Shown here piece by piece: positions 4,832 to 50,677 of a DNA stretch of 64,000 nucleotides. This stretch comes from a virus (Duplodnaviria > Heunggongvirae > Uroviricota > Caudoviricetes): IMG/VR virus record IMGVR_UViG_3300037067_027627; one strand, written 5' to 3'. The position numbers were made by a program, and so were the translations under genes. The notes under the pieces were generated by a model. The model was not told the DNA's origin, searched no databases, and saw nothing but the letters and a program-made list of their open reading frames with translations. The first letter of the stretch is position 1, and every line of letters starts with the position of its first letter.

Positions 4832-5470
4832 TTAAACCATCTTGGCATTTCGCCACTCTTCCATTTCGATGTGACGATTTTCCTTTGCGCATGCGCGCAG
4901 GTATGCAATGGCAGAGTCGGCATTCCGTTTATAGCTTATGAGATACATGGTAGATATCGCAATACTGTAGTCTTCGGATGGATTTCCGGTGATAGGGTTT
5001 TGTTTCATAATCCATTGCGAAATTTCATATGTCCCGTGCATCCATCCAACAAACGAATCAAATCCGATAATAAGTTCGCGACTTTTTATTGTAAGATCGG
5101 TTTGTGTCATTGCATCGTGAAGATTACGAACAAATGCCGTGTATTTTCTTATTACAGATCCGGAACAGTAATCTGGGTGAGGAAACCCGTGTTTATCTCT
5201 GCCCGGGTATCCTGCGCCCGGAGGGAGCTGCATATTCCTGCGATGATAATCCAAAAAATCACCGCTTTCAATACACTCAAGCAACTCCATCATGATGCCG
5301 GAGCACTTCGGTTCTATTATAGATACGTAATCCTCATGCGACAGTTCACCGTCTTTGAACTTCTTGTAAGTGCGATACAGGAGATCGTATGCTTCCGTTA
5401 TTCGCCATAGAATATGATCCTCGATCTGCATAATATTATATAATGAACAACCCATTATATAACTATGCAC
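4832..5470 (-). CDS. Hypothetical protein
   Basis: 212-aa ORF. No confident motif. Confidence 0.45.
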   Translation of the reverse strand: MHSYIMGCSLYNIMQIEDHILWRITEAYDLLYRTYKKFKDGELSHEDYVSIIEPKCSGIMMELLECIESGDFLDYHRRNMQLPPGAGYPGRDKHGFPHPDYCSGSVIRKYTAFVRNLHDAMTQTDLTIKSRELIIGFDSFVGWMHGTYEISQWIMKQNPITGNPSEDYSIAISTMYLISYKRNADSAIAYLRACAKENRHIEMEEWRNAKMV

Positions 5471-6235
5471 AAGAGAATGGATATTTCGTGCGATGATGCC
5501 ATCACTCGGTATTTATCTGGGTCTTCGATAAAACAAGTTGCAATATCATGCGGTTGTTCGTCAACAACAATAACTCGCAGATTATCCGATAAGGATATTA
5601 CGAAACGTCCAAGCGGGAGGGTCGGGGTTTATAAAGAAATGACCACGGATCTGGAGGGATTCATAATCGGGATGATGATGGGTGATTCTAGCTTTGCAAA
5701 TGCAAGGAAACGAAAACTGATATCGACCGAGCATTCGATAGCTCAAACTGGGTATTTAATGTGGAAATTTGATAAATTAAGTTATATTATAGGAGGTAAA
5801 ATATATTTTCGAGATCGGTTTGATACTCGAACAAACAGAACATATCACCCGATTGCGTACCATTCTGCAACACACCCCGCGATAGATAAAATGCATCGTG
5901 AGTTCTTTAAAACCGGAACAAAACAGATTACGTCAGAGTTACTAGAGAGGATAACACCGGAAGGGATTGCGGTGTGGTATTGCGACGATGGGTGCCTATA
6001 TAGAAATCCGATGCGGTATACGAATCAACCCACCATTGCTACAAATGCATTTGATGACGATTCTCGTAATCTAATGATGGGTATGTTCAAAGAAAAGTAC
6101 GGGTTGATATTCAAGGTAAACCGTTCCAATGGATCAATACGAATGTGTAATATCACGGGAATACAAAAATTCTTCGCATTGTTTGGTCGTTTTATTCCGG
6201 CTTGCATGGAATACAAAAAGGCGAGTGTATTATGA
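5465..6235 (+). CDS. LAGLIDADG homing endonuclease with an N-terminal HTH
   Basis: Two LAGLIDADG-type motifs, GFIIGMMMGDSSF and GIAVWYCDDGCL. The N-terminus ITRYLSGSSIKQVAISCGCSSTTITRRL is HTH-like. Confidence 0.65.
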   Translation: MHKRMDISCDDAITRYLSGSSIKQVAISCGCSSTTITRRLSDKDITKRPSGRVGVYKEMTTDLEGFIIGMMMGDSSFANARKRKLISTEHSIAQTGYLMWKFDKLSYIIGGKIYFRDRFDTRTNRTYHPIAYHSATHPAIDKMHREFFKTGTKQITSELLERITPEGIAVWYCDDGCLYRNPMRYTNQPTIATNAFDDDSRNLMMGMFKEKYGLIFKVNRSNGSIRMCNITGIQKFFALFGRFIPACMEYKKASVL

Positions 6236-9978: not shown

Positions 9979-10259
9979 AACGCGGGACTGTTCTGTTTGA
10001 TATACGCGTGCGGATGTTAGATGTAGATCCGACACGCGGGGCTTTTGCGATCGTATTACAGGATTCCGAGGGTGGAATAGAGTGCCCGATTGAAGCATAC
10101 ATGAATACTGTGGATGCTCCGATGGATGATCTGCGTATTAAAATGGCATTCGGTGACATTCGTGATGCAGTTATAGAAGTCATGCGAAAACATTCAGAAG
10201 ACGGAAGCATTGTATACAGGAATAAAAATAAAACGTATGTATCTAGGAAACGCCAGTAG
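9975..10259 (+). CDS. Hypothetical protein
   Basis: 94-aa ORF translationally coupled to the upstream ORF. Its stop codon overlaps the 3' end of tRNA-Asn. Confidence 0.45.
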   Translation: MKRGTVLFDIRVRMLDVDPTRGAFAIVLQDSEGGIECPIEAYMNTVDAPMDDLRIKMAFGDIRDAVIEVMRKHSEDGSIVYRNKNKTYVSRKRQ

Positions 10260-10322
10260 CAGGGCTCGAACCTACGAAACAAGATTAACGGTCTTGCGTG
10301 TTACCAACTACACTATACTGGC
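10251..10322 (-). tRNA. tRNA-Asn (anticodon GTT)
   Basis: Perfect acceptor GCCAGTA/TACTGGC. D-stem GTGT/ACAC. Anticodon arm CAAGA-CCGTTAA-TCTTG (C33 is unusual). T-arm GTAGG-TTCGAGC-CCTGC. Discriminator G. Confidence 0.7.
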
Positions 10323-10325
10323 TCA

Positions 10326-10409
10326 TCGGTGATGCAGGATTTGAACCTGCGAAAGCCCTTCGACAACGGATCTTGAATCCGTCCCGTTTGACCACTCCGG
10401 CAATCACCG
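10326..10409 (-). tRNA. tRNA-Leu (anticodon CAA)
   Basis: Acceptor CGGTGAT/ATCACCG. Anticodon arm ACGGA-TTCAAGA-TCCGT. 15-nt variable arm TGTCGAAGGGCTTTC. T-arm GCAGG-TTCAAAT-CCTGC. Discriminator A. Confidence 0.75.
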
Positions 10410-10411
10410 TA

Positions 10412-10495
10412 TACGCCGGGCAAGATTCGAACTTGCGAAAGCCCTTCGACACCGGGTTCTAAGCCCGGCGGATTTGACCACTCTCCCACCGACGT
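10412..10495 (-). tRNA. tRNA-Leu (anticodon TAG)
   Basis: Acceptor ACGTCGG/CCGGCGT. Anticodon arm CCGGG-CTTAGAA-CCCGG. Same long variable arm as the neighbouring Leu. T-arm GCAAG-TTCGAAT-CTTGC. Discriminator A. Only 2 nt from the next tRNA. Confidence 0.75.
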
Positions 10496-10536
10496 TCTTG
10501 TTAGTTTTGTTATCTTTGTTAGTTCCCTCTCGGGAA

Positions 10537-10619
10537 TGCGTCCGACAGGACTTGAACCTGTATTGTTTCCTCGTGCTCGACTTTAAATCGAGTGCGTTCA
10601 ACCGTTTCGCCACGGACGC
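10537..10619 (-). tRNA. tRNA-Leu (anticodon TAA)
   Basis: Acceptor GCGTCCG/CGGACGC. Anticodon arm CTCGA-TTTAAAG-TCGAG. Long variable region. T-arm ACAGG-TTCAAGT-CCTGT. Discriminator A. Confidence 0.65.
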
Positions 10620-10622
10620 GCA

Positions 10623-10704
10623 TAAGTGGAGCCGGATTCGCACCGGCGACGTTTCCTCGTCCAGAATCTCGATCTGGTGGAGTCGGCTTCTGTCCCATCC
10701 ACTT
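10623..10704 (-). tRNA. tRNA-Leu (anticodon GAG)
   Basis: Acceptor AAGTGGA/TCCACTT. Anticodon arm CCAGA-TCGAGAT-TCTGG. Variable hairpin ACGAGGAAACGTC. T-arm GCCGG-TGCGAAT-CCGGC with G55. Discriminator A. Confidence 0.65.
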
Positions 10705-10738
10705 TCTTTCAACTATCTGGAATTTCCAGACAGTTGAA

Positions 10739-10823
10739 CGATACCGGTAGGAATTGAACCTACAAAGTCTTTCGACCCGGCTGCTTTCAAGGCAGTTTAG
10801 CGCACCACACTACCCACGGTACC
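10739..10823 (-). tRNA. tRNA-Ser (anticodon TGA)
   Basis: Acceptor GGTACCG/CGGTATC. Anticodon loop CTTGAAA. Long variable arm. T-arm GTAGG-TTCAATT-CCTAC. Discriminator G. Confidence 0.55.
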
Positions 10824-10891
10824 ATTTGTTCTGCGAGGCGGTACAGGGGTGTTACCCCGCGACCTTTAGGAGAATCGCCCTACCCCGCATA
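10824..10891. ncRNA. Unresolved 68-nt structured spacer between tRNA-Ser and tRNA-Cys; possibly a non-canonical or degenerate tRNA
   Basis: Contains the GGGGTGTTACCCC hairpin and GGCG...CGCC pairing, but no canonical T-loop could be placed. Confidence 0.2.
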
Positions 10892-10974
10892 AGGACATAA
10901 CAGGATTCGAACCTGTGAAGGGAAATCCCTGTGGATCTGCAATCCACCGCAATTGACCGCTCTGCCATATGCCC
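10892..10974 (-). tRNA. tRNA-Cys (anticodon GCA) with an unusually long (14-nt) variable region
   Basis: Acceptor GGGCATA/TATGTCC. Anticodon arm GTGGA-TTGCAGA-TCCAC. T-arm ACAGG-TTCGAAT-CCTGT. Discriminator U, the universal Cys identity. Extra hairpin AGGGATTTCCCT in the variable position. Confidence 0.55.
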
Positions 10975-11011
10975 ATTTCTTTTCAGGTATTAAGTAATTC
11001 TTAACACCTCA

Positions 11012-11096
11012 CGCCCCGTGCTGGAATCGAACCAACGCCACCCAACGGGTGCACAACGATTAGCAGTCGTGGGGATTACCGCTCTCCCAACGGGGC
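11012..11096 (-). tRNA. tRNA-Ser (anticodon GCT)
   Basis: Acceptor GCCCCGT/ACGGGGC. Anticodon loop CTGCTAA. Long variable arm GTGCACCCGTTGGGTGGC. T-arm GTTGG-TTCGATT-CCAGC. Discriminator G. Confidence 0.65.
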
Positions 11097-11241
11097 AAAA
11101 AACCTATACTAGCCGCTTATAGACTAAGCAAGCGACACGAGGACAGACTATTCAGTAAAGAGACAACCTTAGAAACGTTTCCATCTCTTTCACCGTATCT
11201 GAACATAATAATATGTTGGGCGGGGATCTATATAAAGTTAG

Positions 11242-32527: not shown

Positions 32528-33004
32528 TTACTTCTGAGAAGTCGTCGTGACACTCATCTTCGACCTGAACAATTCAAGCGTGTCCTTCTGCACCTTGAGA
32601 GAATCGTTCATGATGCTGATGATAATCGCATTCTGGTCAATTACATGCGTGAGAAGTGTCTCGACATCCGGCATCGACTTGGTAGTTGCGTGCTCAATAC
32701 GAACACCTCGCAGGAGAGGATGATTTGAATTCGGCACTTTGATCTTGCTGATGTAGAACGAACGGCTTGCCCAGATTGAAGTCATGCGCTGTAAATCAAC
32801 ACTGTCTTCGTGAAGTTTCCTGTATCTGTCAATGAACTCGTTTGCAGAAAACGAAGTAACTGCCATCAGTTTCTCTTCGTCCGTGACCGAGTACTTGGAC
32901 ACGTAATTCGACTGCTCAAACTCAATGTCCGAAAGTTTAACTCCTTTCGGAATCTGTTTTAGGTGGTTTTTCCCAACCACGCTTGTTCCGGCAAGTTTGC
33001 CCAT
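32528..33004 (-). CDS. Hypothetical protein
   Basis: Start reassigned to MGKLAGTS at 33004, preceded by the SD AGGTGA. The ORF-track N-terminal extension reads through repeat copy 5. Confidence 0.45.
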   Translation of the reverse strand: MGKLAGTSVVGKNHLKQIPKGVKLSDIEFEQSNYVSKYSVTDEEKLMAVTSFSANEFIDRYRKLHEDSVDLQRMTSIWASRSFYISKIKVPNSNHPLLRGVRIEHATTKSMPDVETLLTHVIDQNAIIISIMNDSLKVQKDTLELFRSKMSVTTTSQK

Positions 33005-33042
33005 GCATTTCACCTGTTTTGCCCGCCAACACAGACGGGAAA

Positions 33043-33082
33043 CCGTTAACGGGGCTCGCACCCGTTTGCCTTCTGGTAACGG
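33043..33082 (-). repeat. Intergenic tRNA-like minihelix repeat, copy 5; compensatory outer-stem variant CCGTTA/TAACGG
   Basis: CCGTTAACGGGGCTCGCACCCGTTTGCCTTCTGGTAACGG. The paired double substitution preserves the stem. The variant also creates the stop codon of 33046..33333. Confidence 0.85.
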
Positions 33083-33333
33083 TTGGGTAACCAATTCTTG
33101 TTCACCCATCGCTTACAATTTATGCTCCCGGCTCTTACAAACCCTTCTCTCTTAAGCCACGCTGTAATAGTTTCGTTGAACAATCCTCCGGTTTCCAATT
33201 GTAGTTCGTCACGGTAGACTGCACCGAATTTGTCAATCAACTTTGATGTTGCAGACGTTAGAACCTCGTGGTGAATATTAACCTTCAACTGTGATTCCGG
33301 AATTCTCTTGTAAACCATAGATTCACTCCTCAT
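33046..33333 (-). CDS. Hypothetical protein whose last ~13 codons lie in repeat copy 5
   Basis: 95 aa. The C-terminus ...RYQKANGCEPR is the translated repeat. Confidence 0.45.
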   Translation of the reverse strand: MRSESMVYKRIPESQLKVNIHHEVLTSATSKLIDKFGAVYRDELQLETGGLFNETITAWLKREGFVRAGSINCKRWVNKNWLPNRYQKANGCEPR

Positions 33334-33691
33334 ACTTATTGTTCATTACTCGTAAAACACCTAGTAATGTTACTTGCGCCTGTTCAATTCTTTCAAGAGT
33401 TACCGTGTCTTTCCAATCCGGGCACTGCTTATCCTGAACCAATGTCACGCAGTGATCAATATCTATCGGTATATCCTCACTTTTCAAGTTCTTTCTGAGT
33501 TCCTGAACCGTATGAACAGGGCATCTAGGAAATTCTCGCGTTGGTGGATACCCGTGTAACTGAACCTTTGCATCAAATAAGAAACTAGATGTCTCGAACA
33601 ACTCGAACATGATATCTGTGCGAGTCTGCTTAAGTTGCCGATGAAACTCATGTCTCCACGAATACATAATGATACACCTATTATCATGCAA
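33323..33691 (-). CDS. Hypothetical protein
   Basis: 122-aa ORF. Confidence 0.45.
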   Translation of the reverse strand: MHDNRCIIMYSWRHEFHRQLKQTRTDIMFELFETSSFLFDAKVQLHGYPPTREFPRCPVHTVQELRKNLKSEDIPIDIDHCVTLVQDKQCPDWKDTVTLERIEQAQVTLLGVLRVMNNKYEE

Positions 33692-33708
33692 TCAATGCCG
33701 CGATCGCG

Positions 33709-33921
33709 TCATAGAGATGTTCCTAATACGAAGAATACCGAAAACGCAATAGCCAATGGGTATTTCATAATATGATCTTCTGGGAGTTTCGCAAACCCCA
33801 CTGTGAAAAAGCAAGACACCCCAAAGCAAATCGTTGCAACCGTAGAAGTCATGGCATAATCACCAGTTTCGGCAGATACGGAATCAATCCGAATACGGCA
33901 ACCAATATTCCAAAAACGCAA
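33709..33921 (-). CDS. Small membrane protein
   Basis: 70 aa, hydrophobic. Confidence 0.35.
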   Translation of the reverse strand: MRFWNIGCRIRIDSVSAETGDYAMTSTVATICFGVSCFFTVGFAKLPEDHIMKYPLAIAFSVFFVLGTSL

Positions 33922-34064
33922 ACCGCGAATGATGCAAGAGCATCGGCATCATAATAATGTATAACGAACACCGACTCCAGCACCGTCGAATAGAAGTATA
34001 ATGCAAAGATGACCGCGATCACGAAACCTATCGGTATGAAAACCCATTGCGAAATTACAACCAT
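33849..34064 (-). CDS. Small membrane protein
   Basis: 71 aa with two hydrophobic helices. Overlaps the previous ORF, so only one of the two may be real. Confidence 0.35.
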   Translation of the reverse strand: MVVISQWVFIPIGFVIAVIFALYFYSTVLESVFVIHYYDADALASFAVCVFGILVAVFGLIPYLPKLVIMP

Positions 34065-34091
34065 GTAATCACCAGAAAAATAGTGCGGTGA

Positions 34092-35589
34092 TTATCTCAC
34101 CGCGTTGATGTCAATCCTCTCGACTTCATCGACAAGTGTAGTTCCATTCATCTCGTAAAGATTCAGGAACCGCAGAGAGTTGTCTGCCCACCCGCCAACT
34201 GTGCAGTGCTTCCGCTCGCCCTCTGGGAACTGCGTGGTTCCGTAGTGCGCCAGATCGAACGTGTACACGAACGGGTTGTTTCCGGTCTTGATACGGAACG
34301 ACCTGAAAGCATCGTAGCAACTTGGTCGCCCGTATCCCTGCTCGTCCGTGAAGAAGATAATCCGGTCTACATCAGGCATATCCTTTGCGACTGCGCTAAT
34401 ACACAGTCCGGTGTGGGTTGATCCGCCGGTTCTATCTCCAGCATCACGTATCTTGTCTACGTTTGTGAGGATACTGTCCCGTGGGTTTGCCCGAACAATC
34501 GACACGCTTGTACCGAATGCGTATACCTTGCAATCATCAGCGCGCGATGCAACCATAGCTCCGAAGACGTTTCCGATATCCTTGTGAGTTACCATAGACT
34601 TCTCGTGGATACTACTGTTCATCGATCCGCTGTTATCACAGAATACCGCAGTTTTCCCCGGGATGCAAGTCATATTCTCTGCGCTAACCGCCATTGCGTC
34701 TGACAGTGCCGCCTTGATCTTCTCTACCCCGTTGTAGTTAAGGCTCTCGATCTGTCTGTATGCAGTGTAGTACTGCACCGGGATCATTCGTGATCTACGC
34801 ACACGATCTTCATCTGCAACTTCTGCACAAACATCACTGATGTTGACACCGCGCTTCATAAGGTTGCGAAGGTTTCGGATGATACCAAGGTATCCCATTG
34901 CATCAAGGATGTGTGTCCAGTTCTTCTTTGTGGAACCGTTGACCATGATATAGTTCTCCCATGTCTCCGGAAGAGGCAGAGTGCCACCGATAATGTTCTG
35001 GAACATTGTCTCCTGCCCATCGCGTGGCTTTGGGTGTGTCAGGAACATAACGTCCCGTGGCTTGATCATCATGTCATCCTTCGTATACTTGGCAAACTGG
35101 TAACTGTCGAAGCTCACGAACGCCTTCGCAAGACCGCGCTTGATCGCCATTGGCAGGTAAGTTCTCTCCATCTTGTACTGCTTGTTCAGCATCATACAAT
35201 ATGCAAGAAGCTCTGTCATGTCGTCCACACGCTTGATCGACTTCGCAACGTAGTTCGAACCATTCGGGATGTCCTTTGCCCCTGCGTAGATCGCCTCAGC
35301 GAGAATCACCGTTGTGGGTGTTCTCATGTTGAACCGGTTACGCGTGTACCAAGCACCTTTGAGTGCGAGTTCCGGGTCATCCGATCTCGAAATGTTCCGG
35401 ATAAGATCGACAAATCTCTTGTTCGATGCCTCTCCCGACTCGTAAAACGTATTCATCTTCGCAACGGTTGTTGCCGCGCGCAGGATGAACTCCAGCTTCT
35501 CGGATGGCTTGAATGCCTCTCCACCCTCGTAGTTCACGGTGACCTTTGCAGCCACCTTTCTCTTTCCAACTGTCTTGTTAAACTGCATG
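34092..35589 (-). CDS. rsr: Ro60-like TROVE-domain protein with a C-terminal vWA domain (Rsr ortholog)
   Basis: ~500 aa, alpha-helical repeat N-terminal region plus C-terminal MIDAS FCDNSGSM; this architecture and length match Ro60/Rsr. Start placed at MQFNK, which has SD GAGGTGA 6 nt upstream. Confidence 0.65.
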
Positions 35590-35633
35590 TTTCTCACCTC
35601 ATGAGATTGTATTCGCATCACGATACGGTGAAA

Positions 35634-35686
35634 GCGGAATGGCGGGGTTGCACCGCAGCGCGCAAGGCTTCAAGCCCTTATTCCGC
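35634..35686 (-). ncRNA. tRNA-like mini-RNA: acceptor-like stem GCGGAAU/AUUCCGC enclosing a T-arm-like hairpin (UGCAACC loop) and a second hairpin
   Basis: Perfect 7-bp inverted repeat closes two internal hairpins. Same strand as rsr and 45 nt upstream of it. Confidence 0.35.
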
Positions 35687-35877
35687 ATTGATCGAAAGTG
35701 GGGTTATCATGTGGATCTGGTTTAATATTTGTTTCAGATCGTTTGTGACACTTCGGGAAACGACCAAACCCGGACGGAGTTGAACCGCCTAATTTTAGTT
35801 CCGTAGACTAATGTGTAACCGAAGTAACCATTTCCAATCGCATCCCCACCAAATTTACATGAGACCTGAATGGAACG

Positions 35878-35980
35878 TGGAGAGATTGTGCGGGTCAGGC
35901 TTTGCCCTTTCGGGCGAGTTACGGATTCATGTGTAGTGAAATATAACGATGAAACCTTCCCCTGTCGCAACTCCACTGTG
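35878..35980 (-). ncRNA. Y-RNA-like structured RNA, unit A
   Basis: Minus-strand RNA. Terminal helices GUGGAG..CUCCAC and UGCG..CGCA around an internal loop. Internal hairpin UCGCCC-GAAA-GGGCAA (GNRA loop). Conserved block GCGACAGGGGAAGGUUUCAUCGUU shared with unit B. Confidence 0.45.
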
Positions 35981-35996
35981 TAAACATAATAGCAAT

Positions 35997-36090
35997 GGTG
36001 CGTTATTATGCGGGTCTCGCAGCCCTCCCCGAAGGGAGGAATTGTTAACCTAGATGTAAACGATGAAACGATTCCCTGTCGCATCGCACC
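35997..36090 (-). ncRNA. Y-RNA-like structured RNA, unit B (tandem paralog of A)
   Basis: Terminal helices GGUGCG..CGCACC and AUGCG..CGCAU. Hairpin CUCCC-UUCG-GGGAG (UNCG loop). T-arm-like GGGC-UGCGAGA-CCCG. Tetraloops are canonical only in the minus sense. Confidence 0.45.
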
Positions 36091-36154
36091 TATTGCATTG
36101 TGTTCTTGTTATTACTTATGTATGTTCGATTCTGTATATATAACTTGTCACAAA

Positions 36155-36418
36155 TCACCCATCATCAGGATCTTTGCGTTCACATTCTGCACATTTTGTG
36201 TAGATTTTGCTGCGTATGTCCAGTATTACATTTGCAACCGCGCATGCTTGCGTAAACGTCAACGGAATTTCCGTGGTGTTTACTGGGTCTTCTATGACCA
36301 TCACGTAGTCACGGAACCACCCACGCTTCAGCAGAAGACCAGACAACTTACTGTTAAGCTTCGTCAATGAAACCGTTGTGTTGTTCGTAGTGCATTCTAT
36401 AATCACTCTCTGCAACAT
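36155..36418 (-). CDS. Hypothetical protein
   Basis: Start at MLQRVIIE, preceded by GAGGTGAAAAGA-ATG. The ORF-track start is a GTG inside the leader. Confidence 0.45.
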   Translation of the reverse strand: MLQRVIIECTTNNTTVSLTKLNSKLSGLLLKRGWFRDYVMVIEDPVNTTEIPLTFTQACAVANVILDIRSKIYTKCAECERKDPDDG

Positions 36419-36671
36419 TCTTTTCACCTCGTAAAATTCAATGTGCCTAACACGGGGGTATGAGCCCCGCGTGTTGTAATGGCGATTCGAATCCTGTTTG
36501 GACTCAGGACTCCGACTTACGTGTATGATGTCCCCGCGTTTAACGCAGGGAAATTCCGGATACGACGTTTGACCATCGTATCCGGTACCTGATATGAAGT
36601 AAATCCGATCCTAACGTGTCGGGCGCGGGTCAATAGTGTCAACCACCACCCCAAGTCAATACTTGGGAAGA

Positions 36672-36712
36672 CCGTGAACGGGGCTCGCACCCGTCATGCC
36701 GCTAGTCCACGG
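36672..36712 (-). repeat. Intergenic tRNA-like minihelix repeat, copy 6
   Basis: CCGTGAACGGGGCTCGCACCCGTCATGCCGCTAGTCCACGG. Lies 5 nt after the stop of 36718..36987. Confidence 0.8.
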
Positions 36713-36717
36713 TTGCC

Positions 36718-36987
36718 TCATCTTTCTATCGTATACACGCCCTCTGCCAGTTTTTCAACTGCACGAATTACATCGCTTCTTTTTGGGAACATAAACCCCT
36801 TGGGATGCCGTAGAAATGCTTTTACAAACCCGGGCAATTCCCACCCTTCCATGACATTCGCGTCTACTGCAAGCAGATAATCTGCCAATTCGTCAAAGCA
36901 CTCGTCGCAGATATACCCAAACTTCGGATTATATCTATGGCACAACACGTGATGACACCCTTCGCGATTGCAATCCTTTACACTCAT
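36718..36987 (-). CDS. Cys/His-rich small protein
   Basis: CNREGCHHVLCHRYNPKFGYICDECFDE. Confidence 0.45.
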   Translation of the reverse strand: MSVKDCNREGCHHVLCHRYNPKFGYICDECFDELADYLLAVDANVMEGWELPGFVKAFLRHPKGFMFPKRSDVIRAVEKLAEGVYTIER

Positions 36988-37001
36988 TTCTCACCTCTCT
37001 G

Positions 37002-37499
37002 TCATTGTTCTGATCTGGTTTGCAACCATGATATGACACTGATCTCGTATGAAACCGTATCGATATTTTTTCTACGATCTCTGATAGCTGTATCGAAGTC
37101 TCCGCCGGGTTTCAAATTTAATTTCTCGATCCATGTCTTCGCGACTTCGTAATCGATTATTAGGAACATATGCCCGGGATCACGCATTGGGGGGAATTTC
37201 GATATTTCAAGTCCCTTTGCAATCTTGAATGGCTGGAAATCATCAACCGGGATAAGATTCATAAGTTTCCATTCATCGCCCCGTTTTACAGGTGTAACGA
37301 ACTGGAGTTTTCCGGGATATCCACACTCATCTGCGAGAACCCACTCGTAATCAGAAAGGAGATTGTGATCCATTACAGCCGACCGCAAATCCTCGCGAAG
37401 AATCCTGTTAAGCGACTTCAATTGCTTTTCTTTATCCCGAATTTGACGTACCACTTCATTTCTCTCATCAAATGCTTCCTGACTATTCATTGAAATCAC
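37002..37499 (-). CDS. Hypothetical protein
   Basis: 165-aa ORF. Confidence 0.45.
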   Translation of the reverse strand: MISMNSQEAFDERNEVVRQIRDKEKQLKSLNRILREDLRSAVMDHNLLSDYEWVLADECGYPGKLQFVTPVKRGDEWKLMNLIPVDDFQPFKIAKGLEISKFPPMRDPGHMFLIIDYEVAKTWIEKLNLKPGGDFDTAIRDRRKNIDTVSYEISVISWLQTRSEQ

Positions 37500-41446: not shown

Positions 41447-41749
41447 TTAATCGTTTACAGTTACCAGTCCGTGCCGCTTCAGCACGTCTTGAAGTTCATT
41501 TGTGAACTGAACATCCGGAATACGATCTTTCTTGTTTCCGCCATCAATCGCGTTGATGTGTTTCCCTGTTGTAGTGCCCCACACGTTCACAGATACTCTG
41601 GGCAGTTTCCCGGGTTCACAGAATGCAACAACCGTATTGTATGAGAACCAAAGCGACAGTTCCCCAATATCAACACGTTGCGCATGCACTCCATAATTAT
41701 CATTTGCGTAATTCGCATACCCGCGAATCTTAATGTTTCCAACTTGCAT
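41447..41749 (-). CDS. Hypothetical protein
   Basis: 100 aa, preceded by the conserved leader GAAGGTGAAAAAAGA-ATG. Confidence 0.45.
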   Translation of the reverse strand: MQVGNIKIRGYANYANDNYGVHAQRVDIGELSLWFSYNTVVAFCEPGKLPRVSVNVWGTTTGKHINAIDGGNKKDRIPDVQFTNELQDVLKRHGLVTVND

Positions 41750-41794
41750 TCTTTTTTCACCTTCGTTTAGTTCAAATTACCGGATTCCCGGAAC

Positions 41795-41830
41795 ACCGAT
41801 CCCCGACTCGCACGGGTTGTATGCGTTATT
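41795..41830 (-). repeat. Degenerate ninth copy of the repeat: T-arm-like hairpin CCCG-UGCGAGU-CGGG plus the conserved leader
   Basis: Minus strand ACCCGTGCGAGTCGGGG followed by ...CGAAGGTGAAAAAAGAATG. The outer stem is not conserved. Confidence 0.4.
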
Positions 41831-42530
41831 ACTATTTGGAATTCGTTTCGGCCTAATTTAATGTGGTGAATTCGACATTTAACGGCAGTCGATGCCAGTA
41901 TAACCAAATACATTCTACATACTCTAAATATAACACTCTGTTCAAAACAATTCCAAATACGCGGGGTTACACCGCAGGTATATTACATAATCGGTGGTTC
42001 TCTGTGTTGGGCGCACACATCATCGTATCATGCGGATACATGAGGGGATTCGTAACAAAGAAACAAAATGAGTAAGTTAAAGCCTACAACGGGCACGATC
42101 GCAGATAACGCGCGCCAATAACTGTGCACACGCCCGGAGATCTTCCCCCGTGTAGTATTCAAACTTCCATCCGCACCAGTGACTCTTCAAGCGCGGGTTC
42201 ACTATTCCCCCGCTCCAGTTTTACGGTGTCAACATGTTCATCGTGGCACATTGTGCTTAATAGTTCTGTCCTGTTGCTCGATGGCGTTGGACTGTCGGTG
42301 TGGTAGACTGAACACGTTTACGTTACCGCGTATAGTATTGCGGATGTGCATCGGATAACGGCATAACGGGGCTTCTCCACCGAGAACGGGGTTTTAGGGA
42401 CGCCGTAGCGAACCTCTTTCCCGTCGTTCTGGGTTTCGGGTGTCCGTTTTGCCATGATCAATCTAGGATGGGGTTCTATTTAAACCTTCTCCACTTAATG
42501 GGAATTAAGTGTTAATCCGTCCGAATGTTG

Positions 42531-42590
42531 ACCTAGTGAAATACTACGTAGTATACTACGTAGTATTCTATAACTAGGGAACCATCGGGA
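42531..42590. promoter_or_regulatory. Nested palindrome cluster: two overlapping ATACTACGTAGTAT palindromes flanked by CCTAGT/ACTAGG
   Basis: Direct reading of the sequence at 42531-42590. Further palindromes nearby at 42622 (GCGCGC-A-GCGCGC), 42685 (CCCGGG-TGAT-CCCGGG) and 42721 (GACCGTT-TAT-AACGGTC). Confidence 0.5.
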
Positions 42591-42872
42591 TTCCGGGGTT
42601 CTGCAAAGGATTACAGGGATGGCGCGCAGCGCGCGATATTGGGGTTCTGGGCGGGTTTTTGACCTTTTACGGAGAAACACACACCCGGGTGATCCCGGGC
42701 AACGGAAGCCCTATATTAAAGACCGTTTATAACGGTCTGCCTATAGGATGTTGCTCCAGTGTCTTACCCAACTCATCATAGTAGCACCATTCACATACCG
42801 GTTTGCCGTTAATGCAATGGGGTTCATCATCGGAACACTGTAACTTGATCTCTTCCCCGCACAATGTACACT

Positions 42873-43205
42873 TCATAAGAACTTCTCGTGATTTGGTGAC
42901 AGCCGATAATACGTTGTGCCAAACAATCTTTCACGCTCGTTCTTTGGTGCTGGTTTCGGAAGCGCGATCAGAAATCCATCATCTTTCATTTTCCACACAG
43001 CGCGCCTAAACCCGGCATAACTACACACCCTGCGATATTTCAATACGAACTGTTTATACACATTCCAGTTTTTAAACATAAAGTATGGTGTTACCTTATC
43101 ATTACGGTCTAATAACCACTTTATGAAAGCGCGTTGTGACATCGCATCTGATTTCCGAGGCGATAACAACATCACCTCTTCATCAATACCACCTTGCATT
43201 GCCAT
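42873..43205 (-). CDS. Winged-helix DNA-binding protein (putative transcriptional regulator)
   Basis: 110 aa. The start codon overlaps the near-palindrome ATACTAATACGTAGTAT, related to the 42541 palindromes. A TTTAAATA TATA-like box sits ~35 nt upstream on the minus strand. Confidence 0.4.
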   Translation of the reverse strand: MAMQGGIDEEVMLLSPRKSDAMSQRAFIKWLLDRNDKVTPYFMFKNWNVYKQFVLKYRRVCSYAGFRRAVWKMKDDGFLIALPKPAPKNERERLFGTTYYRLSPNHEKFL

Positions 43206-43278
43206 ACTAATACGTAGTATTCAAAAAAGATAAAGATGTCGGATCCCCGTTCTAGGTTTTCTCATCATAAAATCGAAT

Positions 43279-43656
43279 CTATTTAAAATAAAAGTTTGGT
43301 TTGGAACGTACACGCACTGATTCGAGCCTTTCTTCCGCGCGTGCAATATCTATATCGACAATACTATCCCGGCCATCTAGGACATTTGCGATCTCCAATA
43401 AGTCATTCGCCATAGTACGCAGATCGTTTGCGATTGGGTGGAACCGTTCTTTCGACTTCTTGAGATCGAATATCGCATATGTTAACCAGTTGGAAGAGAT
43501 ATCACCGCTTGTCATCAGTTCACGGCACTCTGGATATTTATTCCCCATCACGTATACCTCCGGCTCCCCATTCTTAATCTGATTGAGAAGTTCGCGCACT
43601 TCCTGTTCTACGATCATGAGTTGCGCTTCAACCGGTAACTTCCTGCGTGATGCCAT
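43279..43656 (-). CDS. Hypothetical protein
   Basis: 125-aa ORF. Confidence 0.45.
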   Translation of the reverse strand: MASRRKLPVEAQLMIVEQEVRELLNQIKNGEPEVYVMGNKYPECRELMTSGDISSNWLTYAIFDLKKSKERFHPIANDLRTMANDLLEIANVLDGRDSIVDIDIARAEERLESVRVRSKPNFYFK

Positions 43657-43881
43657 ACTATATTGGAAGTTTCACTACTATTTAAATCAAACCCGGGTAA
43701 TGCAGATGTTTATAAAGATCCCCGTTCAACAATTTTATATGAAACCCGCATTAGTCCACAACAGGGGTGTCAAAAAATTTCGTAGAACAACCGCAACTGT
43801 ACAGTTTGGATGGTTGATCAAATCCGGTTTGGTGCTAATCGTACTTCTCGCTACTATCGTTGCCGTATCTGGTGTAATATC

Positions 43882-44505
43882 ATGAATGATAAAAAATACC
43901 GCGTCTTAGTATCAGATCCTCCGTGGGCATACTCGGATCACAACACAGGTGGATCATTCAAGTCTGGAAGTGGGCAGCATTACACAACTATGAAACCAGA
44001 GACTGTTGCAAAAATACGTGTTCAAGAGATTATGCAAGACGACTCTATTTGTTTACTGTGGATCACAACCCCGCTTCTCGATAAAGGATTCGATGTTCTG
44101 CGCGCGTGGGGTTACGATTACAAGACAACCATCACTTGGTATAAGGTTGATCGTCAAACTATGCGCGGAAGACTCGGACTTGGAAGATATTTCCGTGGAA
44201 TGACTGAGCACGTTCTTGTTGGAATACGTGGAAAAATCAAACCATTTGCTTGCCAGAGCCAGAACGTTATCATAGAAAAGCCCCGTGGTCATTCGCAGAA
44301 ACCCGAAGACTTCTGGAGACTTGTGGATCACGCGATGGGTGACATTAATCCACACCGGGATTTGCAATTCGTAGATCACACACTCGTTGATATCAACCCA
44401 GAACCCAGCATCGAACTATTCTGTCGTGGGGAACCCCGTCCTTACTGGGATGGTTGGGGAAACGAATGCGCCGGGAAACGAAAAGTAGAACTGGATATTT
44501 TATAA
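43882..44505 (+). CDS. MT-A70-family N6-adenine DNA methyltransferase
   Basis: DPPW catalytic motif in YRVLVSDPPWAYSD. Start placed at the MNDKKYR Met. Confidence 0.6.
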   Translation: MNDKKYRVLVSDPPWAYSDHNTGGSFKSGSGQHYTTMKPETVAKIRVQEIMQDDSICLLWITTPLLDKGFDVLRAWGYDYKTTITWYKVDRQTMRGRLGLGRYFRGMTEHVLVGIRGKIKPFACQSQNVIIEKPRGHSQKPEDFWRLVDHAMGDINPHRDLQFVDHTLVDINPEPSIELFCRGEPRPYWDGWGNECAGKRKVELDIL

Positions 44506-44507
44506 TT

Positions 44508-45356
44508 TTATATTGGTTGTGTACAACTCCGACACAACGGGATTATATCTTTGCATCCATTCGCATGTGCAAACCTGTATTTCTTTGCAAGATTACTGTT
44601 TACTGCTTCAAGCATAGACGTTTTGGTGACATCCCCCACATACAACTCACATTCCACATCAAAGCAGCAAATCCCAACTTTCCCATCACAATAAACTACG
44701 GCATTCGTGAACGGAACAGGGCACGGTTCCCTGTTCTCGCCCGTTCTCGTATGAACCCCATGCTGATTATTAAATGAGATTGGATGGAATGAAACGATAT
44801 CCCCACCAAATCTACGTATGAGTTCGTCACAATCTGGTTGTGTCACAAACCGCCCATCGTCTGTAGCCCCAATACATAGAATAACATTGGGCTTTCGCTT
44901 CCGGAACTGGTCTACCGCATACGCAACTTTATCAAGATTCTCGTATTTGAGCCCCATGACAGATTCGTATGTCTCCTTTGTCCCTGCGTATAGACTAAAG
45001 TTCAGGAAGTATAAGGTCTTAATGTTCAGTAATTTCTCCGTGTTCTCCGGTGTAAGGAGAGAACAATTCGTGGAAATCGATATCTTAGCATTCGGAGCGT
45101 GTTCAGAGATGTAATCACAAACCTCAAACAGACGGGGGTTCATCAAAGGTTCCCCATAGTAATATGGCATGATTTCATTGTACTCTCCAGCGGATCCAAC
45201 CTCGTCAATTATCTTCTTCCAGATAGATTCCGGCATTGGATGTACCGATCTCTTCCTGTGGTGGTAACTACAGAATTTGCATTTAGCATTACAATACGGG
45301 TATAAATCAAGCAGAATATTCGGGTAACGACTCTCCATCTGACACCTCTGTTTCAA
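44508..45356 (-). CDS. Radical SAM enzyme
   Basis: CxxxCxxC in YPYCNAKCKFCSY. A C-terminal Cys cluster (CDGKVGICCFDVEC) suggests an auxiliary Fe-S (SPASM/twitch-like) domain. Confidence 0.6.
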   Translation of the reverse strand: MKQRCQMESRYPNILLDLYPYCNAKCKFCSYHHRKRSVHPMPESIWKKIIDEVGSAGEYNEIMPYYYGEPLMNPRLFEVCDYISEHAPNAKISISTNCSLLTPENTEKLLNIKTLYFLNFSLYAGTKETYESVMGLKYENLDKVAYAVDQFRKRKPNVILCIGATDDGRFVTQPDCDELIRRFGGDIVSFHPISFNNQHGVHTRTGENREPCPVPFTNAVVYCDGKVGICCFDVECELYVGDVTKTSMLEAVNSNLAKKYRFAHANGCKDIIPLCRSCTQPI

Positions 45357-49804: not shown

Positions 49805-50677
49805 CTATATAATGTTTTCCTGTATCATGTAATGCTTGTTTACCATCACATCCCGTATACGTGCATCAAACTGCTCAAAATCGGTATACACATCACCGAT
49901 CTTTGAACTTCTCGATGAGTGTCCCAGAATCATATCAATTATCATGTCGTCGATTCCGCGAAGCCTGAATTGCGTCTGCAAGGTTTTTCTTCCTGTTTTT
50001 GCTGTAACCTTCATCCCGTCAACGGAGTAATGACCAAGACGGCGGGTTATCCATTTCCCATTCTCGGATACAGGAAGAGCAGAATACCATTTGTTCAAGT
50101 GCGGGGTTATCTTTTCATGCCATGCCAGAAACCGTTCCCGGTGCGTCTTGCACGTCATAATTACCATAGACCGCTTCTCCCAGTTTATATTGGCAGATCG
50201 CAACCACACTGCAAGCTCAGATGGACGAGCTCCAAAATAAAACTGCACAACCGCCCCGGAATATACCAGATCATTCTTTTCATTCTTTTCAATTGTTTGC
50301 AGCAGCGATCGTAATTCGTCTGGGGTGAGTGATACCTTTTCTCGTTTTGGCTTGACCTGCTTTGCACGCAGAATATTGATCTGATTAAATCGTTGTGTTT
50401 CACGCATCACATTCCCGCTATCTACCGGGAGGGAAGCGCACCTGAACTTCATATACCCTTTCAACGCGGCCAGAAATGCATTGTATGTGTTTTCATTTGC
50501 AATCGTATGCAAATACGATTCGGCATCAACCGTAGTAAACGTTGAAAAGTCACGTTTGGAATGCTTCAACCAGAACGAAAACTTCCCAAGCATTGATGCG
50601 TATAACTTCCCTGCGGAAATTCTATCAGTCCCAGCAAGATGAGCCGTATAATTCAGAATTTCAATTCTATCGTCCAT
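49805..50677 (-). CDS. Tyrosine recombinase / integrase
   Basis: C-terminal catalytic region ...MILGHSSRSSKIGDVYTD (H-x-x-R ... Y) with an upstream R. The size of 290 aa fits. Confidence 0.55.
   Translation of the reverse strand: MDDRIEILNYTAHLAGTDRISAGKLYASMLGKFSFWLKHSKRDFSTFTTVDAESYLHTIANENTYNAFLAALKGYMKFRCASLPVDSGNVMRETQRFNQINILRAKQVKPKREKVSLTPDELRSLLQTIEKNEKNDLVYSGAVVQFYFGARPSELAVWLRSANINWEKRSMVIMTCKTHRERFLAWHEKITPHLNKWYSALPVSENGKWITRRLGHYSVDGMKVTAKTGRKTLQTQFRLRGIDDMIIDMILGHSSRSSKIGDVYTDFEQFDARIRDVMVNKHYMIQENII

Follow-up and report, generated by a model that had tools for sequence, protein, structure and literature searches.

The stretch of DNA analyzed here, a window of 64,000 nt to which all coordinates refer, is a piece of a large uncultivated phage genome, and at around 42 kb it contains a gene for a large folded RNA close to the gene of a small winged-helix protein. 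The first-pass annotation had interpreted this region as a palindrome-rich regulatory hub or origin of replication and overlooked a conserved gene for a structured RNA, which lies on the minus strand and makes up most of the hub. The RNA gene is well supported: the stretch without open reading frames (ORFs) is very probably, judged by comparison with related phages, for the most part the gene of a folded RNA of approximately 400–620 nt. This RNA is previously undescribed and belongs to a small clade of uncultivated large phages. We read the locus on the minus strand, the direction of the flanking genes, because the genes there lie nearly all on this strand and the GC skew is uniformly negative (from approximately 15 kb to 64 kb almost all genes are on the minus strand, with negative skew throughout). 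A palindrome lies upstream of the RNA, and one of its arms recurs as a half-site at the start of the winged-helix gene. The explanation we favor is a new large phage non-coding RNA (ncRNA) gene combined with a palindrome and a half-site that are bound by one protein, most likely the winged-helix protein, and we give this combination roughly even chances of being correct.

Homologues of the 110-aa winged-helix protein number only 15 among 5.8 billion proteins, all of them on metagenomic phage contigs. The comparison comprises eight lineages, namely the window, L003/L004, L005-7, L008-11, L126-128, L129, L130 and L012; the last was recovered by a palindrome scan and the remaining ones through homologues of the winged-helix protein, and contigs L001 and L002 represent the same phage as the window. 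Across the eight lineages the winged-helix proteins are 42–72% identical. No relative was found among the 50,697 deposited phage records of INPHARED, neither by megablast and blastn with the region nor by tblastn with the 1461-aa neighbor protein, and IMG/VR together with 185,579 GTDB species genomes contained no relative of the winged-helix protein, the palindrome or the RNA. In detail, a winged-helix profile search of IMG/VR returned no relatives, the exact 26-nt palindrome had zero matches in IMG/VR and the GTDB genomes, and a first, strict motif scan gave no matches. Scans with the core motif GTCACTGGNNNGGATRGAAG yielded 29 matches in IMG/VR and 81 in GTDB, all attributed to chance with nhmmer similarity confined to the seed, and none of 9 matches from a gapped core-motif scan was confirmed by the covariance model R1 described below.

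Between 41750 and 42726 no ORF is longer than 70 aa and none is conserved. The stretch described as non-coding up to 42870 is thus ORF-free only to 42726, since 42727–42876 on the minus strand is a real ORF. A gap without convincing ORFs follows the winged-helix gene and zero to two small variable ORFs in every lineage; it measures ~1 kb in most of them and ~0.6 kb in L003 and the P0015 contig, and a search with a profile of the gap gave a single copy per lineage in all eight. The gap DNA of the window is 68–71% identical to that of close relatives, compared with 71–77% for genes. The alignments contain the invariant islands AUUGAUCAUGGCAAA, GAUGCACAUC, ACGCGGUAACG, CACACCGACAG and GUCACUGGUGCGGAUGGAAG, and the segments between them vary in sequence and length. 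By eye, the conserved blocks in alignment A2 fall in differing reading frames among lineages and the indels are not multiples of three; a short ORF (MAK...) that begins at a conserved ATG was rejected, because its frame differs among lineages in the same alignment. As tblastn of the gap also detected no coding remnant and no protein similarity, we conclude from these comparisons that the gap block is not protein-coding.

The RNA core comprises at least ~390 nt (42477 to 42084), in which several helices are kept by compensatory changes, and each of the eight lineages has a single copy of the locus per genome. The core domain (42162–42352, minus strand) is built around a multi-helix junction enclosed by the long-range helix CAUCYGC/GYGGAUG. 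In naive alignments, RNAalifold predicts pairing of the invariant islands with one another, and even the rare substitutions in CAUCYGC/GYGGAUG are compensatory (C-G to U-A, G-C to C-G); the same program also finds several hairpins whose sequence is wholly different between lineages. A covariance model of the 191-nt core (R1) has exactly one match per lineage in all eight lineages, the most distant scoring 24 bits. Standard pairs occupy 91% of the cells of the R1 alignment compared with 73% after shuffling, values that are inflated because this alignment (A8) was fitted to the model, and 23 of 41 pairs are changed on both sides, with 12.4 expected (0 of 500 shuffles). Controls with slid partners paired in 31–47%, and the same core helices already covary in MAFFT alignments. 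G-U/U-G combinations outnumber A-C/C-A combinations in the core cells by 23 to 4, which indicates that the RNA strand is the minus strand of the window.

Further elements on the minus strand surround the core domain. Ahead of it lies hairpin P2 (CACUUAAU-UCCC-AUUAAGUG, 42492–42511, minus strand), in which all 6 pairs show changes on both sides among the eight lineages in a structure-naive MAFFT alignment. P2 is followed by a conserved TTTA(A/T)(A/T)TA box (42477–42484, minus strand), located 8–10 nt (in alignment columns) ahead of a conserved ACCCC/AACC; its sequence would be compatible with a -10-like element or a single-stranded RNA segment, both of which are possible. The 5′ domain (42353–42476, minus strand) consists of conserved blocks including the invariant AUUGAUCAUGGCAAA (42448–42462) and the GCCCCGUUC motif, and the helices GGCA/UGCC and ACAGGAAC/GUUCCUGU are predicted for close lineages. 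On the 3′ side, a tail domain of 72 nt (42084–42155, minus strand) is closed by CUACACGGG/CCCGUUGUAG and carries conserved GAAGA and UCGA(A/G)C strands in an internal loop; the closing helix covaries in six lineages (CG/AU, UA/GU, AU/GC, CG/UA/AU/GC). Readings of GAUGA/CUGA as K-turn and C/D box and of GGUCGAACC in the tail as T-loop were by-eye impressions only and were not used. The following U-rich linker with two hairpins (41998–42083, minus strand) is kept in L003 and L009, with compensation seen by eye and weaker evidence, and the RNA probably extends on to about 41948.

The single-sequence fold of 42084–42477 is modestly stabler than shuffles (minimum free energy, z = -2.3). In this fold, the 5′ CCAUCC pairs with GGAUGG of the conserved GCGGAUGGAAG and not with CAUCCGC, the partner supported by covariation; the predicted CCAUCC/GGAUGG pairing may be an alternative conformer.

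At the gathering threshold, Rfam 15 detected only tRNAs in the whole window. A search of 41600–43400 at E<=10 gave four chance-level matches of 11–18 bits, and for the relatives L009, L126, L129 and L130 at E<=5 only sub-threshold tRNA, mascRNA and snoRNA matches were obtained. By these model searches, the RNA is outside every described family, including GOLLD, ROOL, OLE, HEARO, group I/II introns, RNase P, tmRNA, 6S and Y RNA.

Some of the sub-threshold matches concern the putative 3′ end, where a tRNA-like minihelix is located (41948–41997, minus strand). It consists of the T-arm-like hairpin GCGG-UGUAACC-CCGC (41961–41975) and a flanking acceptor-like stem. A T-arm-like hairpin with a 7-nt loop U(G/U)(C/U)AA(G/U/C)(U/C) occurs at the same place in every lineage for which the 3′ region is available, with L126 deviating from the loop consensus (UUCAUUG). 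L129 and L130 possess a perfect GGGG-UUCRAUU-CCCC arm, a D-arm and an acceptor stem of 6–7 bp without a proper anticodon arm. A D-arm-like hairpin is clear in L129, L130, L003, L005 and L009 and reduced in the window. The sub-threshold Rfam matches at this element are to tRNA (22.3 bits, in L130 only) and to mascRNA (25.5 bits, in L129). ARAGORN reported no tRNA in seven loci, nor at 41948–41997 of the window. According to ARAGORN and the Rfam tRNA model (29 bits), the element is not a tRNA; it is tRNA-like only, with a T-arm, an acceptor stem and a variable D-arm, and the anticodon arm is missing or minimal. A MAFFT alignment of the element was poor and gave no consensus fold.

Several points have to be held against an RNA gene of this kind and extent. 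Besides the fitting of the R1 alignment to its model, the covariation comes from eight lineages only, and the MAFFT alignment of the 5′ domain gives no consensus fold over all eight of them. The tRNA-like element is derived from by-eye comparison and sub-threshold matches. Finally, strand, extent and transcription of the RNA were deduced from sequence comparison.

To our knowledge, large bacterial or phage ncRNAs with complex conserved folds are rare, and those we are aware of are ribozymes, ribonucleoprotein scaffolds or mysterious assemblies such as GOLLD, ROOL and OLE. GOLLD and ROOL are large ornate RNAs often found in phages and prophages near tRNA genes. The RNA described here resembles them in being longer than 400 nt, multi-domain and phage-encoded, in a tRNA-rich genome and with a tRNA-like element at the 3′ side. 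It differs in showing no similarity to their Rfam models at E<=10, in its restriction to eight lineages of one clade and in its coupling to an invariant palindrome and a winged-helix gene. The tRNA-like structure with reduced anticodon arm at the 3′ side of a long ncRNA is also reminiscent of MALAT1/mascRNA, in line with the weak Rfam match in L129. A third comparison concerns Y RNAs of the YrlA type, which are 80–130 nt long and encoded within 4 kb of Ro60 on the same strand (Chen et al., 2014, PMC4201824). The window encodes a Ro60/TROVE protein with a von Willebrand factor A (vWA) domain on the same strand (34092–35621, minus; a counterpart is found in L129, 9714–11175), and the tRNA-like end with putative T-arm-, D-arm- and acceptor-like stems lies 6.3 kb upstream of it. 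However, with at least 390 nt and a distance of ~6.3 kb from the Ro60 gene, the RNA lies outside both the size range and the distance given in that study (PMC4201824), its topology is tRNA-like with an open acceptor stem, and no Rfam Y RNA family was among the matches. Rfam also detected no Y RNA or YrlA within 33000–37100 around the Ro60 gene.

The palindrome A-ATACTACGTAGTATACTACGTAGTAT-T (42540–42567, core 42541–42566) is a 26/28-nt inverted repeat that can be parsed as 11-nt arms around GTATAC. Two overlapping 14-bp palindromes had been noted here; both copies of ATACTACGTAGTAT are indeed found at 42541–42566, but together they form a single perfect 26-nt palindrome, and because in two lineages the 12- to 14-mers are non-palindromic while the whole repeat stays palindromic, it is better read as one 26/28-nt inverted repeat. 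The enclosing CCTAGT/ACTAGG is present at 42532–37 and 42573–78, but is asymmetric and unconserved in relatives. As the first-pass annotation had proposed, we looked for the palindrome elsewhere: the 14-mer, TACGTAGTA and the 9-mer core occur nowhere else in the 64 kb except in a near-copy at 43207–43220 at the winged-helix gene. The palindrome lies ~100 nt past a terminator-like hairpin and ~60 nt ahead of the conserved TTTAWWTA box. It is identical at 26 of 26 positions in the window, L003, L005, L009 and L012, the flanks having diverged. Only the centre is altered in L126, symmetrically from GTATAC to GAATTC, and the palindromes of L129 and L130 have diverged to TACTACG(Y)GTAT|ATACGCATAGTA, which is still an inverted repeat. 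Eight of its 12 pairs never vary and the neighboring P2 varies at every pair, which argues for selection on the sequence itself and thus implies a sequence-specific partner. A plus-strand promoter of the sigma-70 type (TTGACC-18-TATACT, 10/12) with its -10 in the palindrome centre was rejected, since the -35 is unconserved in relatives.

The near-copy, ending in TACTACGTATTAGTAT, had been annotated as overlapping the start codon of the winged-helix gene (42873–43205, minus strand); it is located immediately before this ATG. On the minus strand it consists of AATACTACGTA (43211–43221) followed by TTAGT (43206–43221 in total), corresponds to one 11-nt arm of the palindrome and abuts the start codon. 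AATACTACGTA is found just 5′ of the winged-helix start codon in the lineages of group A; in L003 it differs at one position. L129 and L130 instead carry TACTATGCGTAT, and this, when reverse-complemented, is identical to the right arm of the diverged palindrome that each of them possesses. Half-site and palindrome, 650–900 nt apart, have therefore changed together, and this is the strongest evidence that both share a ligand. A T-rich TTTAT box (CTTTAT on the minus strand, 43230–43235) lies ~10 nt upstream of the half-site, and by eye TTTAT(A/C) precedes the half-site at similar spacing in the window, L003, L005, L009, L124, L125, L126 and L129; by its sequence and position it would be a candidate promoter element of the winged-helix gene. 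In L124 the unit of box and arm is found 130 nt upstream of the ATG, which has its own Shine-Dalgarno (SD) sequence. As the arm of L124 keeps its place after the TTTAT box, the arm seems to travel with the presumed promoter and not with the start codon. In L130 the half-site lies at 4884–4895, from which the winged-helix homologue P0013 seems to start at the ATG at ~4899 and not at 4853 as called.

The first-pass annotation had instead assigned a TATA-like TTTAAATA box, 30–35 nt upstream of the start, and with it archaeal promoter geometry to this gene. This box (43281–43290) lies ~75 nt upstream of the ATG and represents the last codons and the TAG stop of the upstream gene 43279–43656 (...FYFK*), and with a misplaced, coding box and a bacterial Shine-Dalgarno sequence AAGGTGA at the next gene, nothing archaeal is left. 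A promoter or host of the Bacteroidota type was also considered and dropped, because the downstream genes have strong SD sequences.

For the 110-aa protein a PadR/MarR-like winged-helix fold is predicted with high confidence. It has no Pfam match at E<=0.1 and no PHROG match, and a PDB profile search returned noise only. In the recognition-helix region the two site groups have different sequences (SYAGFRRAVWKMK vs SSAGFRRAIWKLH). The two TACGTA cores of the palindrome are 12 bp apart, and this spacing matches the half-site spacing ATGT-N8-ACAT of PadR operators. The system differs from known PadR/MarR autoregulators in several respects: the protein has no match among Pfam or NCBI-type families, only one arm is present as the site at its own gene, and a second, much stronger site is located 650 nt downstream, before the RNA gene.

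In the mechanism that we consider best suited to these data, the large structured RNA would be transcribed from the minus strand in the same direction as the flanking genes. A single sequence-specific protein would bind to both palindrome and half-site; this is most likely the PadR/MarR-like winged-helix protein, which would regulate its own expression and also control or mark the gene of the RNA. We favor an operator at the DNA level because of the protein fold, the half-site linked to the promoter, the 12-bp TACGTA spacing and the selection for dyad symmetry. The first-pass annotation had proposed the winged-helix protein as autoregulator or initiator; the operator part is reasonable, as palindrome and start-codon site are conserved and co-vary, but the initiator and origin part is unsupported. 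Against binding by the winged-helix protein it has to be considered that the protein is tied to the sites by adjacency alone and that a single arm, as found at its gene, is unusual for a dimeric winged-helix protein. Furthermore, each arm has 11–12 conserved bases in a row, which would fit a tyrosine recombinase arm or base-pairing equally well, and G-U at the outermost pair of the palindrome hairpin in three lineages hints at an RNA hairpin.

The recombinase arm leads to a first alternative, which we regard as improbable while deserving attention, that the palindrome is a dif/loxP-like target of an Xer-like recombinase and serves circularization, multimer resolution or integration. A tyrosine recombinase of ~290 aa is encoded in the window (49805–50677, minus strand), with a PF00589 match of 33 bits (cut-off 27.1) and XerA (4a8e) as the best PDB match. 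In tblastn it is 55–58% identical to the products of neighbor genes (291–294 aa) of the winged-helix gene in relatives. There, the recombinase gene lies divergently beside the winged-helix gene (L003 9053–9931, L005 9033–9917, L008 3282–4160, L126 8489–9364), with the half-site in the intergenic region between both; in L126 a gene for an HNH_3 endonuclease is inserted between them. As in Cre/loxP and Xer/dif, where arms of 11–13 bp surround a short centre, the layout is 11-6-11, L126 alters only the central 6 bp, and the half-site is exactly one 11-nt arm, which would be a single recombinase arm. Small winged-helix proteins can act as excisionases, so that the winged-helix protein would be an Xis-like accessory factor. 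The identical 26 bp in an otherwise unrelated bacterial contig, L013, would then be an attB. However, natural sites have asymmetric spacers that give direction, and the centre here is perfectly symmetric; the symmetric double change in L126 argues for selection on dyad symmetry. In the window the recombinase gene is 6.6 kb away from the winged-helix gene, with which the half-site has remained, and the phage contains no second partner site and no attL/attR junction was found.

The site in L013 (JGI Ga0102851_10006673, 5927–5974) is also unlike a simple attB, as the 26-nt palindrome is part of a perfect 48-nt palindrome of four 12-nt units (AACTACGTATTA TACTACGTAGTA TACTACGTAGTA TAATACGTAGTT). 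It lies in the 137-nt spacer of two co-directional genes, and its outer units resemble the half-site variant of the window (TACGTATTA). The genes of L013 encode a pectate lyase, a beta-helix protein, a caspase/Fib_succ_major protein and an Lgt-like protein, and the contig has nothing else in common with the phage: no homologue of the winged-helix, zinc-ribbon or recombinase protein was found on it. Host operator, attB and hairpin terminator are all possible roles of this site.

To the alternative that the palindrome acts as RNA we assign the same low probability as to the recombination site. The palindrome would then form a 5′ stem-loop of the large RNA or its precursor, and either its right arm would pair as antisense with the matching 11–12 nt at the translation start of the winged-helix mRNA or the winged-helix protein would bind the hairpin. 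As P2 just downstream is a hairpin conserved in structure only, transcription probably starts upstream of it. In addition to the outermost G-U pairs in three lineages, an A-U pair switches to U-A in L129, and the gene site of L129 and L130 complements the right arm perfectly, while the left arm shows a C-A mismatch and in L129 an additional G-U. In most lineages the site takes the place of the Shine-Dalgarno sequence and abuts the ATG. On the other hand, a seed that is sequestered in a perfect 13-bp hairpin is badly suited for antisense pairing, and the position of the L124 site, 130 nt from an ATG with its own SD and still after the TTTAT box, points to action at the promoter and not at translation. 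Furthermore, the central changes in L126 would be located in the loop, and pairing gives no reason for a symmetric change there; with 8 of 12 pairs invariant, the palindrome is also more conserved than a hairpin requires.

A more elaborate proposal, which we consider speculative and very unlikely to be correct, is that the ~620-nt RNA is the RNA subunit of a new phage ribonucleoprotein with a palindromic 5′ hairpin, an ornate core and a 3′ tRNA-like module. Either an arm of the hairpin would pair with the 11–12-nt copy, so that the RNA guides or gates the Xer-like recombinase and the winged-helix protein or the expression of the winged-helix operon, or the RNA would be an outsized Y-RNA-like partner of the phage Ro60. 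If this were true, these protein families would take part in an RNA-directed mechanism that is not known for them.

An origin of replication with the winged-helix protein as initiator, as suggested by the first-pass annotation, has very little probability left. The intergenic region is long and contains palindromes, an AT-rich part and repeats (GGGGTTCT is present in 3 copies within 180 nt; the window has 6 compared with 1.3 expected), and a DNA-binding protein is encoded next door. Structured or R-loop transcripts can prime replication, as in ColE1 and T4, so that the transcript might be a primer RNA. However, GC skew and cumulative skew, which were calculated for the 64-kb window of the genome, run straight through 42 kb; the sole inflection is at ~15 kb, where gene orientation flips, and from there the cumulative skew is monotonic to 64 kb. 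The GGGGTTCT repeats are kept only in part among relatives, the AT-rich part (41750–41947) is lineage-specific and relatives carry a gene there, and neither an initiator gene or replication-initiator domain in the neighboring proteins nor origin-type iterons were found. The extensive covariation is accounted for by an RNA and would be needless for an origin.

That the block is the remnant of a protein gene, or belongs to a flanking gene as a long structured leader or 3′ untranslated region, is just as improbable as an origin: a GP88-like gene follows the block directly in relatives, overextended gene calls enter it and the short MAK... ORF begins at a conserved ATG, but the downstream gene varies (DUF8033-type in the window, GP88-like in the other lineages) with the RNA remaining constant, terminator-like hairpins part the block from the upstream operon, and the differing frames in alignment A2, judged by eye, and the missing protein similarity speak against a coding past.

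The remaining elements of the region are in line with its first description insofar as the listed motifs are all present at, or within 1 nt of, their annotated positions. This includes GCGCGC-A-GCGCGC (42622–42634), GACCGTT-TAT-AACGGTC (42721–42737) and CCCGGG-TGAT-CCCGGG (42684–42699). The latter corresponds on the minus strand to the terminator-like GC hairpin CCCGGG-ATCA-CCCGGG (42682–42701), which is followed by a T-rich tail, has the hairpins at 42721–42737 and 42622–42634 as companions and, by its sequence, probably ends the operon of winged-helix and zinc-ribbon genes. Each relative has its own GC-rich hairpin of the GCGCGC type ~45–100 nt upstream of the palindrome. The zinc-ribbon ORF (CxxC...CxxC; 42727–42876, minus strand), which overlaps the stop of the winged-helix gene, is real and conserved, but encodes 49 aa and not the annotated 45 aa. 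Its homologue is fused to the C-terminus of P0013 in L130 (183-aa product, 4853–5404), and several other lineages lack the ORF. C-rich motifs on the RNA strand, AGAACCCC in three copies (42470–42477, 42595–42602, 42641–42648) and A(A/G)(A/G)CCCCGUU in two (42366–42374, 42386–42394), are only partly kept in relatives, as AAACCC(C/G).

Downstream of the RNA, the lineage-specific AT-rich DNA (41750–41947, minus strand) contains a 16-nt inverted repeat (41833–41848/41944–41959), a CCGG hairpin and, for the next gene (ATG at 41749), the SD AAGGTGA. At the corresponding place, relatives have a canonical intrinsic terminator, followed by an SD and the GP88-like gene; the window has ~200 nt of AT-rich DNA instead and is devoid of a GP88-like gene. 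This gene (~210 aa; PF17338, 30 bits) lies directly after the RNA locus at ~11214–11846 in L003, ~11450–12079 in L005 and 2838–3470 in L009, and the gene calls in L003 and L005 overextend its ORF into the non-coding block. On the other side, an MT-A70 DNA methyltransferase (43810–44505, plus strand) and a radical SAM/SPASM enzyme (44508–45356, minus strand) are neighbors of the locus kept in all longer relatives. The window also encodes NAMPT, an RNA ligase and DUF932 in addition to the Ro60/TROVE, MT-A70 and radical SAM proteins, has some PHROG matches and carries 14 tRNA genes; tRNA arrays on the minus strand are located at 470–2565 (Lys, Glu, Arg, Asp, His, Gln) and 10251–11097 (Asn, four Leu, two Ser, Cys). 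Contig L002 breaks within the palindrome (end at 1240) and L004 stops ~200 nt past it, inside the RNA locus, which may thus be a place where assemblies of the phage clade tend to break.

The reach of these findings is limited by the small and uncultivated clade. Within it, our analysis adds a well-supported candidate for a large RNA with a clear context, consisting of the winged-helix gene, the co-varying palindrome, an Xer-like recombinase, Ro60 and genes of the RNA-repair type. Furthermore, the co-variation of palindrome and half-site is a clean natural specificity swap that can be used to find the recogniser of the site.

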